From positions 23,400 through 55,399 of the forward strand of contig CAZPWW010000014.1 of assembly GCA_964590885.1 (NCBI GenBank): a stretch of 32,000 nt of DNA, read 5' to 3'. Source of the stretch: an uncultured Phycisphaeraceae bacterium. GTDB taxonomy: Bacteria; Planctomycetota; Phycisphaerae; Phycisphaerales; UBA1924. The stretch's first letter is position 1. The number at the start of each line of letters is the position of its first letter. Below are positions 15,780 to 29,877 of this stretch, piece after piece. The notes beneath the pieces are model-generated. The model ran no database searches. It was not told the DNA's origin and saw nothing but the letters and a program-made list of their open reading frames with translations. A program made the position numbers and the translations under genes.

Positions 15780-15808
15780 AGTATGCACACTCGGAATACA
15801 CACGTCAA
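15780..15808 (-). promoter_or_regulatory. putative sigma-70-type promoter of argR-argF-argG (leaderless) with an overlapping ARG-box-like palindrome
   Basis: The minus strand reads TTGACG-N17-CATACT, then 5 nt, then the ATG. This places the transcription start at or next to the start codon. The AT-rich imperfect palindrome TGTATA-AG-TATGCA (15774-15787) overlaps the -10 element and the ATG. It is one of the few AT-rich islands in the window. Confidence 0.4.
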
Positions 15809-16099
15809 GCACGGCCGGTTGGATTCGCCGTTACGGGGAGGCGGCACCGGGTCGCCGGACGGCCGGGCGACGGGGCCGGCGTCCACACGGGGCGGCCGCT
15901 TCCTGGTGCTCCGGTGCCCGCCGACGTGCTTCCACACCCCTACGTGCGAGGATCGGCCCTGCCAATCAGGCAGGCGGACGGGGGCATCAGTTGGGTGCTG
16001 ACAGGCCTGCGGACCGCCGCGCACGCTCCGGATGGGGTTTGCCCTTGATTGGGCCGGGCCCGGTGCCTCGTGCACGCACACGGCAGCCGGTTCCGGTCG

Positions 16100-16114
16100 T
16101 GGCACTTGGGTTGC
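16100..16114 (+). promoter_or_regulatory. sigma-54 (RpoN) -24/-12 promoter upstream of groEL1
   Basis: TGGCAC-TTGGG-TTGC is an exact match to the TGGCAC-N5-TTGC core (GG-N10-GC). It lies ~105 nt upstream of the groEL1 ATG, in a 445-bp non-coding gap. Confidence 0.55.
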
Positions 16115-16219
16115 CCTGCGATGGGCGGCGGTGGTTCCGCCGGCTTACCGAACAAACCGCGTCCGGCTCAGGGCCGGGCCGGCTCGCTTCCTTGGTCTTG
16201 CGAAACGGAGACGATCCCG

Positions 16220-17977
<1,758 letters not shown>

Positions 17978-18036
17978 TCGTTCTGTCCGTGCCCCGTCGC
18001 CCGACGGGCAGCATTCGCTCGACCAAGGAGCCTCGC

Positions 18037-18279
18037 ATGGCCAACGCACGCGATCTGTTCAACAAGATGGGCTCCGGGTCCATGCCGCGCCTGACCCCTC
18101 CCAAGCCCGTCATCGGCCCGGCCCACGCCCCCGACGGCGAGGGCGAGCACAAGGCCAACACCTTCGAGCCCGGCAAGAAGGGCGGGGCCGGGGCGGCCAA
18201 GTACCGCACCGCCGGCGGCCCCTCAGGTGCCGGTGGTGCCGGCGGAAGCGTGCCCACCAGCGTTCGTCCCAAAGTCTGA
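18037..18279 (+). CDS. hypothetical small Gly/Pro-rich (probably disordered) protein
   Basis: 80 aa from the ATG at 18037, preceded by AAGGAG with a 7-nt spacer. Nearly all third positions are G/C in this frame. The sequence is MANARDLFNKMGSGSMPRLTPPKPVIGPAHAPDGEGEHKANTFEPGKKGGAGAAKYRTAGGPSGAGGAGG... No recognisable domain. Confidence 0.55.
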   Translation: MANARDLFNKMGSGSMPRLTPPKPVIGPAHAPDGEGEHKANTFEPGKKGGAGAAKYRTAGGPSGAGGAGGSVPTSVRPKV

Positions 18280-18315
18280 TCCTCCCTCTCCGGTGCGCCC
18301 CCACGGCCCTTGCTC

Positions 18316-19044
18316 ATGCAGCCACTCTTCGACAGCCTGAAGCAGCTCTTCACCGACATCCCCGGGTTCCTCACGGCCTTCGTGGGGGATCACGGCCCCT
18401 GGGTGTACGGCCTGCTCTTCGCCATCATCTTCGCGGAGACGGGCCTGGTGCTGCTGCCCTTCCTGCCGGGGGACTCGCTGCTCTTCACAGTCGGCGCGCT
18501 CAGCGTGCCCGACAAGGAGACCGGCAAGGCGGCGTTCAACCTGTGGCTGGTGTCGGGGGTGCTCATCCTGGCGGCCATCATCGGCGACGCGGTGAACTAC
18601 CACATAGGCAAGTACGTCGGGCCGCGCGTGTTCAACAAGAACCCGACGCCGGACCACACCCCCACGTTCATCGAGCGGGCTCTGAACCGGCAGCACCTGG
18701 ACCGGGCCCACGCCTTCTTCGAGAAGTACGGGGGCAAGGCGGTCATCCTGGGCCGCTTCGTGCCGATCGTGCGCACGTTCGTGCCCTTCGTGGCCGGTGC
18801 CGGGGCCATGAACTACACGCGCTTCGCGGTCTACAACGTGGCGGGCGCGTTCCTGTGGGTGGGCGTCTGCTGCGGGGCGGGCGTGCTGTTCGGGAACATC
18901 CCGTTTGTCAAGAAGCACTTCGAGTTGGTCGTCATCGGCATCATCGTCGTGTCGGTGCTTCCGGTCGTCTACGAGGTCCTGGTCGCGCGGGCCGAGGCCA
19001 GGCGCCTGGCCGCAGCGGCGGCCGTGGCGGCCGGGAAGTCGTGA
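18316..19044 (+). CDS. dedA: DedA family inner-membrane protein
   Basis: FAETGLVLLPFLPGDSLLFTVGAL and GKAVILGRFVPIVRTFVPFVAGAGAMNYTRFAVYNVAGAFLWV are the DedA/SNARE-associated signature blocks. ATG at 18316 (the track starts at TTG 18310). Confidence 0.9.
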   Translation: MQPLFDSLKQLFTDIPGFLTAFVGDHGPWVYGLLFAIIFAETGLVLLPFLPGDSLLFTVGALSVPDKETGKAAFNLWLVSGVLILAAIIGDAVNYHIGKYVGPRVFNKNPTPDHTPTFIERALNRQHLDRAHAFFEKYGGKAVILGRFVPIVRTFVPFVAGAGAMNYTRFAVYNVAGAFLWVGVCCGAGVLFGNIPFVKKHFELVVIGIIVVSVLPVVYEVLVARAEARRLAAAAAVAAGKS

Positions 19045-19052
19045 GCATTCAC

Positions 19053-19096
19053 GCGCGGCTCGACGTGCCGCGCTTCGGTCGGGTTGGTTGGTTTTT
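19053..19096 (+). terminator. hairpin plus T-rich tract after dedA (possible intrinsic terminator)
   Basis: GCGCGGC-tcgacgt-GCCGCGC is a perfect 7-bp stem. It is followed by ttcggtcgggttggttggttttt. Confidence 0.4.
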
Positions 19097-19111
19097 AGCG
19101 GAGTATCAGTC

Positions 19112-19402
19112 ATGGCCATCAAACCGTTGGAAGATCGCGTCCTTGTCAAGCCCATCGAAGCCGAGACCAAGACCGCCTCGGGCATCTACCTGCCCGAATC
19201 GGCCAAGGAGAAGCCCGTGCGCGGCAAGGTGGTCGCCGTCGGCCCCGGCAAGCGCCTGGACAACGGCAAGCGGGCCGAGATGAGCGTGAAGGTCGGCGCC
19301 ACCGTGGTCTACGGCAAATACGCCGGCAGCGAGGTCGAGATCAAGGGCGACAAGCACCTGATCATCAAGGAGAGCGAGTTGCTGGGCGTGCTGGAGGGCT
19401 GA
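19112..19402 (+). CDS. groES: co-chaperonin GroES
   Basis: The track ORF was trimmed to the ATG at 19112. MAIKPLEDRVLVKPIEAETKTASGIYLPESAKEKPVRGKVVAVGPGKRLDNGKR...VVYGKYAGSEVEIKGDKHLIIKESELLGVLE is canonical GroES. 96 aa. Confidence 0.96.
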   Translation: MAIKPLEDRVLVKPIEAETKTASGIYLPESAKEKPVRGKVVAVGPGKRLDNGKRAEMSVKVGATVVYGKYAGSEVEIKGDKHLIIKESELLGVLEG

Positions 19403-19411
19403 CCGCTGCGC

Positions 19412-19569
19412 GGTCAAAGGGCCAAACGGTCGAATCACCACATGGCCAAATGATGCCGGTGCCAGTCATGTCCTCGGGTTCGGTCGGCCGGCGTGTGCCG
19501 GCCTAGAAGTGCGGTGTTGTCCAGTTCCGATTTGGCCATTTGGCCATTTCACCCTTTGGCGATTTGGAT
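19412..19569 (+). repeat. 158-nt imperfect palindrome: two inverted arrays of five tandem 8-nt units (GGCCAAAT / ATTTGGCC type) flanking a GC hairpin, in the groES-groEL2 spacer
   Basis: The left arm at 19412-19451 is GGTCAAAG GGCCAAAC GGTCGAAT CACCACAT GGCCAAAT. The central hairpin at 19486-19503 is GGCCGGC-gtgt-GCCGGCC. The right arm at 19530-19569 is ATTTGGCC ATTTGGCC ATTTCACC CTTTGGCG ATTTGGAT. The right arm ends 6 nt before the groEL2 ATG. Confidence 0.85.
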
Positions 19570-19575
19570 CCTCCC

Positions 19576-21189
19576 ATGGCAACCAAGCAGATCATGTTCG
19601 GCGATGCGGCTCTCCAGGAAATGAAGAGGGGTGTGGTGCGCCTGGCCCGGGCGGTGAAGGTCACAATGGGTCCTACCGCGCGGCACGTGCTCCTCCAGAA
19701 GTCGTACGGCGGCCCCAGTGTCTCCAACGACGGTGTCTCGGTGGCGCGTGAGATCACGCTCCCCGAGCCCTTCGAGAGCATGGGCGCCAAAATGGTCAAC
19801 GAGGTCGCCAAGAAGACCAACGACCAGGCCGGTGACGGCACCACCGCCGCCACCGTGCTCGCTGAGGCGATCTTCCTCGAGGGCCTGCGCCACGTCGCCG
19901 CGGGGGCCAATCCCGTGCTCATCCAGCGCGGCATCAACGGCGCGGCCCAGGCCGCGGCCGACGCCATCGACGCGATGGCCATCAAGTGCAAGGGCAAGGC
20001 AGATTACGTGAAGGTTGCCACCGTCTCCGCCAGCCACGATGCCAAGATCGGCGAACTCATCGCCGAGGCCATCAACAAGGTTGGGCCCGAGGGCGTGGTG
20101 GAAGTGGAGGAGGGCAAGGGTGCCGAGACCACCCTCGAGTACGTTGAGGGCATGGCCTTCGACAAGGGCTACATCTCGCCCTACTTCATGACCGATCCCA
20201 AGACCGCCGAGTGCGTGCTCGAGGACTGCTACATCCTCATCTACGAGAAGAAGATCGCCAACATGGCCGACTTCCTCCCGTTCCTGAACAAGGTGGCCGT
20301 CACGGGCAAGCCCGTGCTGGTGATCGCCGAAGAGGTGGAGAGCGAGGCCCTCGCGGCGCTCGTCGTGAACCGTCTCCGCGGCACGCTCAAGATCTGCGCA
20401 GTGAAGGCCCCCGGCTTCGGCGACCGCCGCAAGGCCATGCTGGGCGATATCGCCATCCTCACCGGCGGCACGTTCATCGCCGAAGATCTGGGCCGCAGCC
20501 TGGAGTCGGTGGAACTCGCCGAACTCGGCCGCGCCAAGAAGGTCATCATCACCAAGGACGAGACCACGATCATCGAGGGCGCGGGCAAGAAAGCCGACAT
20601 CGAGCAGCGTGCGGCGCAGATCAAGGCGCAGCACGACAAGAGCACAAGCGACTACGACAAAGAGAAGTTCATGGAGCGGCTCGCCAAACTCACTGGCGGC
20701 GTGGCCATCATCAACGTCGGCGGCACCACCGAGATCGCGATGAAGGAGAAGAAGGACGCGGTCGACGACGCCCTCCACTCCACGCGGCACGCGGCCAAGG
20801 CCGGCTATGTGCCCGGCGGCGGCGTCGCCCTCATCCGCACCCAGGACGCCATCGAGAGGGCCAAGGCCAAAGCCAAGGGCGACGAGAAGATCGGTTACGA
20901 CATCGTGGCCGTCGCGGTCGAGTCCTGCGCCAAGCAGATCGCCATCAACGCCGGTGTCGATGGCGACATCGTCGTCGAGAAGATCAAGGAGGGCTCCGGC
21001 GGCTTCGGCTACAACGCCCAGACCGGCGACTACACCGACCTCGTCAAGGCCGGCATCATCGACGCGGCCACCGTGCCCAAGACCAGCCTGGTGAACGCGG
21101 CCAGCGTCGCCGGCCTGATGCTCACCACCAACGTCATGATCACCGAGCTCAAGGACAAGGCCGAGCCGGTCGTCGGCGCGGTGTCGTAA
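19576..21189 (+). CDS. groEL: chaperonin GroEL (groES-linked copy, no GGM tail)
   Basis: The track ORF was trimmed to the ATG at 19576. MATKQIMFGDAALQEMKRGVVRLARAVKVTMGPTARHVLLQKSYGGPSVSNDGVSVAREITL is followed by NDQAGDGTTAATVLA. It ends ...MITELKDKAEPVVGAVS with no Gly-Met repeats. Confidence 0.96.
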   Translation: MATKQIMFGDAALQEMKRGVVRLARAVKVTMGPTARHVLLQKSYGGPSVSNDGVSVAREITLPEPFESMGAKMVNEVAKKTNDQAGDGTTAATVLAEAIFLEGLRHVAAGANPVLIQRGINGAAQAAADAIDAMAIKCKGKADYVKVATVSASHDAKIGELIAEAINKVGPEGVVEVEEGKGAETTLEYVEGMAFDKGYISPYFMTDPKTAECVLEDCYILIYEKKIANMADFLPFLNKVAVTGKPVLVIAEEVESEALAALVVNRLRGTLKICAVKAPGFGDRRKAMLGDIAILTGGTFIAEDLGRSLESVELAELGRAKKVIITKDETTIIEGAGKKADIEQRAAQIKAQHDKSTSDYDKEKFMERLAKLTGGVAIINVGGTTEIAMKEKKDAVDDALHSTRHAAKAGYVPGGGVALIRTQDAIERAKAKAKGDEKIGYDIVAVAVESCAKQIAINAGVDGDIVVEKIKEGSGGFGYNAQTGDYTDLVKAGIIDAATVPKTSLVNAASVAGLMLTTNVMITELKDKAEPVVGAVS

Positions 21190-21197
21190 GGCGTGAC

Positions 21198-21277
21198 GGG
21201 ACTGGGCATTGGGCACTGGGCACTGGTGTCAATGCACGTGGTATTCACCAGTGCCTGATGCCCGGTGCCAGGTGCCT
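21198..21277 (+). repeat. 80-nt imperfect palindrome built from inverted arrays of tandem 7-nt units (GGGCACT type), in the groEL2-dnaJ spacer
   Basis: The left arm is GGGACT GGGCATT GGGCACT GGGCACT GG.. The right arm is ..AGTGCCT GATGCCC GGTGCCA GGTGCCT. The perfect 10-bp core stem is GGCACTGGTG (21219-21228) with CACCAGTGCC (21246-21255), with a 17-nt loop. The right arm ends 9 nt before the dnaJ ATG. Confidence 0.8.
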
Positions 21278-21286
21278 GCGATTCCC

Positions 21287-22516
21287 ATGCCCTCCACCCA
21301 GCGCGACTACTACGAAGTGCTTGGCGTCGAGAAGAAGGCCGACGCGGAGGAGATCAAGCGCGCCTATCGCCGCCTGGCGATGAAGCACCACCCGGATCGC
21401 AACCCCGGCGATGCCGCCGCGGAGGCCAAGTTCAAGGAGGCCGCCGCGGCCTACGAAGTCCTCTCCGACGAGCAGAAGCGCAAGGTCTACGACGTTCACG
21501 GGCACGACGGCCTGCGCTCCTCCGGGGGGCCCGCCCCGCACGACTTCAGCCGCATGAACGTCGACGACATCTTCTCGATGTTCAACGACATCCTTGGCGG
21601 CGGGGGGGGCGGCTTCGGCGGCATGGGCGGAGCAGGCCGGCGCGGGCAGGCCCGCGGCTACGACCTCGAGCACGAGGCCGTCATCTCCCTCGAAGACGCC
21701 TTTCGTGGCGTGGAGCGCTCCGTCGATTTCACGCGCCTCGACGTCTGCGAGAAGTGCACGGGCTCGGGCGCCAAGGCCGGCTCCAAGCCCATCACGTGCG
21801 CCACCTGTGGCGGCCAGGGGCGCGTGCAGCAATCCGGCTTGGGCGGCATGTTTCGCATGGTGGTCGCCTGCCCGGCGTGCGGCGGGCGGGGCCAGGTCAT
21901 CAAGGACTTCTGCCCCGACTGCCGCGGAAAGGGTCGCACGCCGCGCAGGCGCTCCCTCTCCGTGCGCATCCCGCCCGGCATCGCCGACGGCCAGGTGGTG
22001 CGCGTGCGCGGCGAGGGGGAGCCGCCCCCTCCCGAAGAGTCGCGCGACGGCTCCGGCGTGCGCGGCGACCTGCACGTGGTGGTGCGCGTGCGCAAGCACG
22101 ACTACTTCGAGCGCGAGGGCGAGCACCTTGTGCTGCATATGCCCGTTTCGTTCGTCAAGGCCACGCTCGGTGCGGACGTGGACGTGCCCACGATCGAGGG
22201 CAGCGCCCAGCCGGCCGGTGGCGAGAGCAGGCCCATGGGCGGGTCGACCAACGGCTCGCCGGCCCAGGGACGCGAGCGGCTCACCATCCCGCGCGGCACC
22301 CAGCACGGGGCGATGTTCCGCGTGCCCGGCAAGGGCATGCCCGACCTCCGCACAGGCCGGCGCGGCGACATGGTGGTGATCGTCAACCTCGAGATACCCA
22401 AGAAACTCTCGGCCGCGCAGGAGAAACTCCTGCGTGAGTACGCCGCCAGCGAGAACGAGAACGTGCTGCCTGAGACTCAGGGATTCTGGAAGAAGATCAA
22501 GGATGCCCTCGGCTGA
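21287..22516 (+). CDS. dnaJ: molecular chaperone DnaJ (type I)
   Basis: The track ORF was trimmed to the ATG at 21287. The J-domain is DYYEVLGVEKKADAEEIKRAYRRLAMKHHPDRNPGD. A G/F-like stretch follows. Four CxxCxGxG zinc motifs are present (CEKCTGSG, CATCGGQG, CPACGGRG, CPDCRGKG). Confidence 0.95.
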   Translation: MPSTQRDYYEVLGVEKKADAEEIKRAYRRLAMKHHPDRNPGDAAAEAKFKEAAAAYEVLSDEQKRKVYDVHGHDGLRSSGGPAPHDFSRMNVDDIFSMFNDILGGGGGGFGGMGGAGRRGQARGYDLEHEAVISLEDAFRGVERSVDFTRLDVCEKCTGSGAKAGSKPITCATCGGQGRVQQSGLGGMFRMVVACPACGGRGQVIKDFCPDCRGKGRTPRRRSLSVRIPPGIADGQVVRVRGEGEPPPPEESRDGSGVRGDLHVVVRVRKHDYFEREGEHLVLHMPVSFVKATLGADVDVPTIEGSAQPAGGESRPMGGSTNGSPAQGRERLTIPRGTQHGAMFRVPGKGMPDLRTGRRGDMVVIVNLEIPKKLSAAQEKLLREYAASENENVLPETQGFWKKIKDALG

Positions 22517-22556
22517 TGTGCCCGCCCCGTGCGGGCGTGCCGCTATGGAATGACGG

Positions 22557-23201
22557 ATGCGCATGAACCCGTTCAAGAAGGACAAGTCCGATCCCGGCGC
22601 ACCCTCGCCCGAGGCGGGGGTGCCGTCGGTCGACCCCGCGGCGGCCGATGCGGCGGCGGCGCTCGATCCGGCGGGGCCTGACGAGACCGCCGCACTGATC
22701 GACGACCTTTCCGCGAAGGTGGACGAACTCACGCGTGAGCGTGATCTGGCCCGTGACGAGCACACCCGTGCCCTGGCCGAATTCCAGAACTACCAGCGCC
22801 GCTCGTTGCAGAACGAGCAACAGGCCCGCGAGTTCGGCGTGCGGGGCGTGCTGCAGTCGGTGATGCCGGTGATCGACCACTTCGACATGGCCCTGGGCCT
22901 GGATGCGGACAAGAGCACCGCCCGTCAGGTGATCGATGGCGTGACGATGATCAAGGATGAGTTGCTGCGAGTGCTCGGGCAGCACGGTGTGGCGCTGCTG
23001 CGCCCCGGCGCGGGCGAGGCCTTCGATCCGCAGAGCCACGAAGCCCTGATGCGGGTCCCAGCCCCCGGCATCGAGCCGGGGCGCATCGTCGCCACGCTGC
23101 GGCCGGGTTACGCCATGCACGGCCGGGTGGTGCGGCCCGCGCAGGTGTCGGTGGCCGCCGAGGCTCCCGGCGCGGTCGCCGACCAGGGCGCGGAGGGCTG
23201 A
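22557..23201 (+). CDS. grpE: nucleotide exchange factor GrpE
   Basis: LTRERDLARDEHTRALAEFQNYQRRSLQNEQQAREFGVRGVLQSVMPVIDHFDMAL and ...GEAFDPQSHEALMRVP...YAMHGRVVRPAQVSV are canonical GrpE blocks. It lies downstream of dnaJ. Confidence 0.92.
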   Translation: MRMNPFKKDKSDPGAPSPEAGVPSVDPAAADAAAALDPAGPDETAALIDDLSAKVDELTRERDLARDEHTRALAEFQNYQRRSLQNEQQAREFGVRGVLQSVMPVIDHFDMALGLDADKSTARQVIDGVTMIKDELLRVLGQHGVALLRPGAGEAFDPQSHEALMRVPAPGIEPGRIVATLRPGYAMHGRVVRPAQVSVAAEAPGAVADQGAEG

Positions 23202-29699: not shown

Positions 29700-29792
29700 T
29701 GCCAAACGCCCAAAATGCCAGGAGGTCGGGTGCGGTGCGGCGGGCAGACTTGCCCGCATCGTCCGGCCGCCTGGCCATTTGGGTCTTTGGGG
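29700..29792 (-). repeat. inverted CCAAA/TTTGG octamer arrays flanking a GC hairpin in the rpsO-pnp leader (same unit type as the groES-groEL2 element)
   Basis: The plus strand reads TGCCAAAC GCCCAAAA TGCCAGGA, then ... GCGGGCA-gact-TGCCCGC (29740-29757), then ... CCTGGCC ATTTGGGT CTTTGGGG. It lies 160-255 nt upstream of the pnp ATG. Confidence 0.7.
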
Positions 29793-29832: not shown

Positions 29833-29877
29833 CGAAACCCGAAACAAACAGGCCCGCAGACATTCGTCCGCGGGCCT
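29833..29877 (-). terminator. rpsO terminator/attenuator hairpin
   Basis: The minus-strand RNA reads AGGCCCGCGGAC-GAAU-GUCUGCGGGCCU, a 12-bp stem including one G-U pair. It begins 13 nt after the rpsO TAA and is followed by GUUUGUUUCGGGUUUCG. Confidence 0.6.

Follow-up and report, generated by a model that had tools for sequence, protein, structure and literature searches.

A repeat-armed hairpin between groES and groEL2 of an uncultured Phycisphaeraceae bacterium, probably an empty member of a dispersed family of intervening-sequence-like cassettes

A 158-nt palindrome separates groES from groEL2 in the chaperone operon of an uncultured Phycisphaeraceae bacterium (contig CAZPWW010000014.1), of which a stretch of 32,000 nucleotides, referred to as the window, was analysed. 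On balance, we regard it as probable that this element is a hairpin cassette resembling the intervening sequences (IVS) of rRNA, devoid of an open reading frame (ORF) and belonging to a dispersed family, which is co-transcribed with its neighbours and processed by RNase III; it would represent a tolerated insertion or processing module and not a heat-shock sensor. The arms of this family are inverted arrays of short tandem units of 7-8 nt, an architecture that is displayed three times in the window, which supports this reading. The features concerned are the following.

19112-19402, + strand: groES (Cpn10), the upstream cistron (Pfam PF00166, E 2.5e-34)
19403-19575, + strand: groES-groEL2 spacer, 173 nt
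19412-19451, + strand: 5' arm, five GGCCAAAT-type octamers, purine-rich and weakly periodic
19452-19529, + strand: loop region of 78 nt without an ORF, unalignable with the closest relatives
19486-19503, + strand: inner perfect hairpin GGCCGGC-GTGT-GCCGGCC, a window-specific insertion
19530-19569, + strand: 3' arm, five ATTTGGCC-type octamers, the best-conserved part of the element
19576-21189, + strand: groEL2 (Cpn60), the downstream cistron, with its ATG at 19576 (Pfam PF00118, E 3e-69)
Following groEL2, + strand: groEL2-dnaJ spacer of 97 nt, then dnaJ, starting at 21287
21198-21276, + strand: second hairpin, in the groEL2-dnaJ spacer, arms 21198-21228 and 21246-21276, heptamers GGGCACT / AGTGCCC
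29702-29790, - strand: third hairpin, in the rpsO-pnp leader, with a CCAAA/TTTGG unit as in the groES-groEL2 element

The 5' arm reads, in order, GGTCAAAG, GGCCAAAC, GGTCGAAT, CACCACAT and GGCCAAAT and begins about 9-10 nt behind the groES stop codon, while 6 nt (CCTCCC) lie between the 3' arm and the groEL2 ATG; the spacer and arm positions, the palindrome length and this distance had all been given correctly in a preliminary description of the DNA. The sole Shine-Dalgarno (SD)-like GGA of the element is found in the last unit of the 3' arm, ATTTGGAT. An inverted-repeat search revealed arms at 19415-19451 and 19530-19566 (37 nt, 78% complementary), forming the longest inverted repeat of the whole window, and pairing in register yielded 29 Watson-Crick pairs over 40 positions, in line with the roughly 30 paired positions described before; the G-U pairs mentioned there amount to a single one, next to one A-C mismatch. 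The proposed five-by-five octamer structure holds for the 3' arm, where Tandem Repeats Finder detected a period-8 array (19530-19567, 4.8 copies, consensus ATTTGGCC, score 48), and less so for the more degenerate 5' arm, in which periodicity is weak and three of the five units are near the consensus. The spacer is indeed richer in A/T, with a GC content of 0.58 against 0.63-0.72 in its surroundings. Allowing up to three mismatches, ATTTGGCCATTTGG matched 10 times in the window (1.18 expected), and TTTGGNNNTTTGG with at most one mismatch six times (0.63 expected), all six being confined to the groES-groEL2 element or to the element at 29702-29790.

For comparison, 80 loci were retrieved with GroEL2 (71-91% identity), all of them from metagenome-assembled genomes of Phycisphaerales/Phycisphaeraceae. 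Where groES adjoins groEL, the spacers measure 23 to 505 nt, and many relatives carry tandem units right after the groES stop codon and complementary units just before the groEL SD sequence or ATG. Folding the first 60 nt of each spacer against its last 60 nt revealed complementary ends with a period of 7 or 8 in about 21 of the 47 adjacent groES-groEL spacers (duplex z <= -2.5). Their units vary by lineage, including GGCCAAAT, AAGTGGCA, CGCAGAGG, CGCGGAGA, GGCACTAG, GGCATCA and others, and the two arms are complementary all the same; between genomes, all units of one array change in concert. In the Phycisphaerales, a cassette follows directly on a stop codon, and a few to about 25 nt separate it from the next start; at groES|groEL, the insert is placed behind the groES stop and ahead of the CCGAAGGAG SD region. 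Three states of this site were observed among the relatives, namely a spacer of 23-25 nt, an empty repeat-armed stem and a stem bearing an IVP gene (see below); the window copy represents the empty form with an 8-nt unit. These states are interspersed on the GroEL tree, which indicates that cassettes were gained or lost repeatedly at a single site, and no target-site duplications were evident by eye between filled and empty groES|groEL sites. Alignment of the window with its two closest relatives, L001 and L002, displayed a nearly invariant 3' arm, a moderately conserved 5' arm and an unalignable centre, three sequences being too few for covariation and the repeated units making the alignment ambiguous. 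The central GC hairpin pointed out earlier does exist at 19486-19503 and is absent from both of these relatives, which makes it a private insertion and not a conserved part of the element.

The contents of the longer stems provided further insights. An ORF of about 125 aa on the strand of the neighbouring genes is present in each of the ten groES-groEL spacers that measure 450-505 nt, and the sole representative scanned, that of L039, was identified as a 23S rRNA-intervening sequence protein (IVP; PF05635, E 8e-37), also matching TIGR02436 'four helix bundle protein'. Ten groEL-dnaJ spacers likewise contain an ORF in the orientation of their neighbours, with octamers of the CGCAGAGG / CCTCTGCG type on its two sides, and here the sole representative scanned (L002) belongs to PF13366/PDDEXK_3, TIGR04256 'GxxExxY protein' (E 2e-40). 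In a tblastn search over 1.36 Mb, the two families gave 22 matches, 21 of which are located at the groES-groEL and groEL-dnaJ sites on the strand of the host genes. A metagenomic contig (L084) displayed a PF05635 gene within paired octamer arms, between genes for an APS kinase and an inositol-monophosphatase-family protein, and thereby ties GCCAAA/TTTGGC octamer arms, which are of the window's kind, to the PF05635 cargo family. This 23S_rRNA_IVP / four-helix-bundle family is a large one, with at least 7875 matches at E<=1e-10.

Intervening sequences of 23S rRNA are stem-loops that are removed by RNase III, and some of them encode a PF05635-type ORF. The one in helix 45 of Coxiella burnetii has a 28-bp terminal stem and an S23p ORF, preceded by tandem GACAGAT heptamers in variable number, the first of which marks the point where RNase III cleaves the stem (PMC4990558). 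The elements described here are similar in that inverted termini form a long stem, the loop optionally holds a PF05635 ORF, so that ORF-less and ORF-bearing forms occur, purine-rich tandem heptamers of variable copy number lie upstream of the ORF, and the phylogenetic distribution is sporadic. With respect to a stem of complementary termini whose loop may encode a PF05635 protein, the window has the stem, ten relatives hold an ORF within it at the same site (PF05635 in the representative scanned), and L084 has PF05635 cargo between octamer arms of the window's kind. In contrast to the rRNA elements, they are not inserted in a 23S or 16S rRNA helix and reside between protein-coding genes, in operon spacers such as groES|groEL, groEL|dnaJ and dcd|nrdJ or in the rpsO-pnp leader; moreover, both arms consist of tandem units, a second cargo family (GxxExxY) occurs, and the RNase III step is assumed by analogy. 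On the same analogy, the window element is probably an RNase III substrate, and an RNase III-type site, proposed in the preliminary description as one of three options, fits best among them, given the 23S_rRNA_IVP gene enclosed by the stem of relatives and the Coxiella precedent. The element would be transcribed as part of a groES-groEL2-dnaJ mRNA, which is plausible since the spacers contain neither a sigma-70-like promoter nor an intrinsic terminator, counts of both over 15800-22700 being at chance level. Pairing of the arms would then loop out the insert, so that the groES stop comes to lie next to the groEL2 start, and RNase III would cut the long imperfect duplex as it does in 23S rRNA intervening sequences, separating the groES and groEL2 transcript segments.

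The other two hairpins of the window show the same architecture. The one between groEL2 and dnaJ, which only the groES-groEL2 palindrome exceeds in length among the inverted repeats of the window, leaves 10 nt to the dnaJ ATG (21287) and is much more stable than the groES-groEL2 element, with a minimum free energy of -60.8 kcal/mol (z -3.98; duplex z -5.8). The one in the rpsO-pnp leader is composed of a 5' arm CCAAAGACCCAAATGGCCAGG, an inner hairpin GCGGGCA-AGTC-TGCCCGC and a 3' arm CCTGGCATTTTGGGCGTTTGG, reaches -55.3 kcal/mol (z -4.28) and ends 165 nt upstream of the pnp ATG (29537); none of the related loci included rpsO-pnp in its flanks. Two copies with the same CCAAA/TTTGG unit are present within 32 kb, and single assemblies carry arrays on several contigs, VYLH01 for instance on at least five. 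In E. coli, the rpsO-pnp leader is a classic RNase III site, and intercistronic RNase III sites are also known from the early mRNA of phage T7. These are comparable as long imperfect hairpins between cistrons, one window copy lying precisely in the rpsO-pnp leader, but there is no sequence relation, their arms are not repeats, and cleavage is a prediction in the present case. Immediately 3' of the rpsO stop codon, a hairpin CAGGCCCGCGGAC...GTCTGCGGGCCTG with a T-run behind it, resembling a terminator, was additionally observed (29840-29877, - strand).

Elements of this kind are by no means restricted to chaperone genes. A k-mer scan, requiring at least three tandem and at least two inverted copies, recovered 37 elements compared with one in shuffled sequence, and an ungapped inverted-repeat scan 126 compared with 17. 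Additional sites include the acyl-CoA synthetase|transaldolase spacer, the region after transaldolase (once with an IVP gene) and that upstream of grpE, and units recur at different loci within one genome (L075). The 5' arm is purine-rich, as found for 33 of the 37 elements, and the 3' arm pyrimidine-rich; use of this as a strand test was abandoned, since a palindrome has an identical 5' arm on either strand, and it is retained as a polarity feature only. Among the matches listed in a metagenome scan with the window 3'-arm motif, (ATTTGGCC)n arrays were numerous on contigs of high GC content; roughly one half of them have an upstream (GGCCAAAT)n array as a partner, and the other half stand alone. 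Octamer arrays also occur between putative clpP genes and in many other places; by GC3-based gene calls, three of 19 metagenome hairpins lie between co-directional genes and one between convergent genes, the other 15 being unclassified.

Lone (ATTTGGCC)n arrays were found to end 7-30 nt upstream of start codons (L085, L087, L115, L134/L191, L155, L167 and others), and their last unit is often TTTGGAG or TTTGGA, giving an SD-like core. An orientation-specific translation enhancer in the 3' array was considered; relative to start codons, direct-only arrays are split into four in sense and four in antisense orientation. Short tandem heptamer repeats are known from Cyanobacteria as STRR. The TAACTGA repeats of Beggiatoaceae form direct arrays, with one inverted case among 170 sets (PMC4679880). 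Both resemble the present arrays, in particular the lone ones, as tandem 7-nt intergenic units often located a few nt upstream of start codons; however, inverted pairing is the rule here, whereas those arrays are direct and have not been linked to IVP or GxxExxY genes. With an 8-nt unit of different sequence and inverted arrays, the window element shares a general resemblance with these repeats and does not belong to them.

Both cargo families occur in comparable settings in other bacteria. Three further IVP proteins are all encoded in a dcd-[IVP]-nrdJ arrangement, with inverted heptamer arms whose duplexes amount to -59 to -89 kcal/mol. The IVP genes of cyanobacterial plasmids, too, are inserted in the direction of their neighbours and have heptamer arrays beside them; they are located at cas6|cas4, at parA|parB, behind a transposase gene and behind an integrase gene, and the arm duplex of the Geminocystis case has a z of -9. 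The four-helix-bundle IVP gene between cas6 and cas4 on plasmid pANA02 of Anabaena sp. 90 (L212) is preceded by an array of GGTGACA / GGGAACA heptamers of at least 200 nt. GxxExxY genes in three other phyla are co-directional inserts as well, flanked by CACAGAGG / CCTCTGTG-type units, at fabD|fabG (Sphingomonas), ade|manC (Bernardetia) and radA|FAD protein (Bacteroides). The units beside GxxExxY in Bacteroides, Bernardetia and Gemmatirosa are those of the Phycisphaerales; the arm duplexes reach z values of -14.7 in Bacteroides and -5.8 in Bernardetia (32% GC), and a complete 3x3 hairpin adjoins the gene in Gemmatirosa. Four other taxa with GxxExxY genes have no CACAGAGG / CCTCTGTG-type arrays in the flanks. 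A GxxExxY gene on a Fusobacteria plasmid (L220) lies between copies of a 22-nt repeat, CAGATTTAATCCGTGTACCTAT, that is direct instead of inverted, and one of Treponema (L221) has a short inverted repeat, CACGGATTCG / CGAATCCGTG, in its flanks.

Several observations weigh against an RNase III-processed cassette. Folded alone, the spacer forms the 5x5 stem at -66.9 kcal/mol, with a z of only -1.05, and with coding flanks the z is -0.37, so that the window element is not more stable than its shuffles; in a slightly wider context with coding flanks, local structures outcompete the arm-arm stem, which may then be missing from the fold of minimum energy. The arm-arm duplex as such has a z of -2.7. 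As the thermodynamic signal is weak, the case for a stem structure rests on the comparative evidence. Neither the window nor its closest relative with full flanks contains an IVP or GxxExxY gene according to tblastn. On the sense strand, arm mismatches display no excess of G-U over A-C (32 vs 30), which gives no proof of selection on RNA; the complementarity of the arms could be maintained by a process acting on DNA. Lone arrays stand in either orientation to start codons, as mentioned above, and at least one hairpin with a window-type unit lies between convergent genes (L110). Finally, this reading does not account for the tandem-repeat make-up of the arms and their cargo-specific units, which may reflect protein recognition of the repeats or homogenisation at the DNA level.

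A good part of these observations, namely the lacking G-U bias, the convergent pair and the arrays in both orientations, would suit a purely DNA-level selfish or neutral repeat, REP/REPIN- or MITE-like, that the mRNA simply tolerates and that serves no other function there, the palindrome being spread or homogenised by slippage and intrastrand template switching or by a nuclease or transposase. Dispersal over many unrelated intergenic sites, with many metagenome contigs among the matches listed, the patchy gain and loss at one site and the concerted change of array units point in the same direction. We nevertheless consider this explanation rather unlikely, although it is the rival to be taken most seriously. 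Cargo ORFs are co-oriented with their hosts in 21 of 22 Phycisphaerales cases, in the three dcd-nrdJ cassettes and in four cyanobacterial cases, as is GxxExxY in six of the eight plasmid loci with annotated neighbours on both sides. The purine-then-pyrimidine polarity is not expected from a process that acts on DNA without regard to the strand, the 3' arm is conserved beyond what pairing alone needs, and the homologous Coxiella element is processed as RNA. REP, BIME and REPIN elements of Proteobacteria are dispersed, genome-specific imperfect palindromes of intergenic regions, including those within operons and near stop codons, and can affect mRNA stability. The present elements differ from them in that the arms are tandem 7-8-nt arrays and not a single unit of about 35 nt, the cassettes can carry ORFs, and their position is conserved across genera.

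The arrays might also be iterated sites for a sequence-specific nucleic-acid-binding protein, for instance IVP or GxxExxY acting in cis or in trans, with the hairpin being secondary. This would agree with the association of CACAGAGG-type units with GxxExxY in Planctomycetota, Bacteroidota and Gemmatimonadota, with that of GGCAYYR heptamers with IVP at two different sites, with units common to several loci of one genome, and with a weak bAvd match of IVP that suggests a distant relation to Avd, a protein of diversity-generating retroelements. We judge it improbable, considering that the window and its closest full-flank relative encode neither protein, that both arms are always complementary, which single-strand sites do not need, and that the link between unit and cargo could partly reflect common descent at one site.

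Translational control of groEL2, in which occlusion of the SD sequence and AUG is relieved by heat or, in a translational coupling across a long-range stem, by ribosomes terminating on groES, appears very unlikely. In its favour, the arms lie close to the groES stop on one side and to the ATG on the other, the sole SD-like GGA is part of the last unit, the full stem forms when the spacer is folded by itself, and the stop-to-start arrangement is repeated in relatives. However, for the stretch from the SD-like GGAT to the AUG (19562-19578), folding at 15, 25, 30, 37, 42 and 50 C, as advised in the preliminary description, yielded a flat predicted pairing probability of 0.52-0.54, revealing no thermometer behaviour, and in most relatives the SD sequence (AAGGAG) is located 3' of the stem and outside of it. 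The idea of a thermolabile structure occluding the groEL2 start is thereby not supported, and the element does not qualify as an RNA thermometer; furthermore, the copy in the pnp leader ends 165 nt upstream of the ATG, as given above, and the same elements occur at non-stress genes. Sequestration of the SD sequence is more readily conceivable for a conserved mini-palindrome, ACTCC-GAA-GGAGT, than for the big stem; it was observed within the roughly 25 nt that precede the groEL ATG in L056, L065, L068, L073, L077, L078 and L079 and would pair the groEL SD sequence (GGAG) with CUCC.

It is hardly credible that the arrays serve as operators of a heat-shock transcription factor or that the element is an internal promoter or terminator. 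In favour are the location within a chaperone operon and the iteration of the motifs, the latter being formally in keeping with cooperative binding. However, the identical motif is found in the rpsO-pnp leader and at many sites unrelated to chaperones, those of the metagenomes included, so that the iterated heat-shock regulator sites proposed earlier are not supported; a heat-shock-specific operator would hardly be expected to be common to groEL2 and pnp. Promoter and terminator signals do not exceed chance, as stated above. The earlier finding that classical heat-shock operators are missing holds for CIRCE, the one operator checked (TTAGCACTC-N9-GAGTGCTAA, no match in the window with up to three mismatches). 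The element thus shares with the ROSE and fourU thermometers and with CIRCE/HrcA its location in a heat-shock operon, and with CIRCE the inverted repeat, and differs from them by the missing predicted thermal opening and CIRCE consensus and by not being confined to stress genes. Rfam gave no match at the gathering threshold over the whole window, and at E<=10 only generic-hairpin matches, all below gathering, were obtained.

Some further features of the region were noted. Upstream of groES, the following genes are present.

16220-17977, + strand: groEL1, upstream of the VTT-domain gene
Between groEL1 and groES, + strand: VTT-domain gene

The 3' end of groEL1 (17903-17970) encodes a GGM-type repeat tail in a period-9 GGCGGCATG array, and groEL2 has no such tail. 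The groEL coding sequence of the window contains an inverted repeat at 20442-20468 / 20948-20974, consisting of GGCGACATCGCCGTCCTCACCGGCGG and a partner about 480 nt downstream, which recurs in orthologues including L006, L028 and L029 and is probably a by-product of conserved codons. Another recurrent hairpin family, GTGGCACAGGCGTCCCGCCTGTGC-like, is often found right after the groEL stop (L056 11619-11758, L059 2048-2172, L073 11621-11691, L077 4616-4685, L078 11626-11696 and elsewhere), and a further one, GGGTTGTAGCCACGGGTGGAGC, in L053, L065 and L067; both look like REP-type repeats.

Taken beyond the single element, the repeat-armed cassettes could form a distinct cross-phylum class, intervening sequences of mRNA operons, a suggestion that we put forward tentatively, as possible rather than probable. 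Such cassettes would carry promoterless IVP or GxxExxY genes in the loop and cargo-specific 7-8-nt repeat arms, insert between cistrons of expressed operons, be removed or neutralised by RNase III and leave ORF-less stems after cargo loss; the repeats would be recognition or mobility sites of the cargo proteins, and part of the cyanobacterial short tandem repeats would thereby be explained. For protein-coding operons the class appears to be undescribed. In the literature searched, no report of such a placement came to light, and the note on heptamers in the Coxiella IVS was the one exception to a lack of papers connecting IVP or GxxExxY genes with repeat hairpins; among short tandem units near start codons, the TAACTGA repeats (PMC4679880) come closest. 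Two very large families of proteins, 23S_rRNA_IVP and GxxExxY/PDDEXK_3, whose function is not known and whose odd genomic placement has been unexplained so far, are tied by the present evidence to one recognisable architecture, inverted tandem-repeat arms within operons. This extends the idea of the intervening sequence from rRNA to mRNA and links it to unexplained short tandem repeats of several phyla. For annotation, it accounts for unusually long spacers in conserved operons such as groESL-dnaJ, which should accordingly not be taken for stress-specific riboregulators. Should processing by RNase III be confirmed, these cassettes would represent a general way for insertions to sit in essential operons without breaking them.

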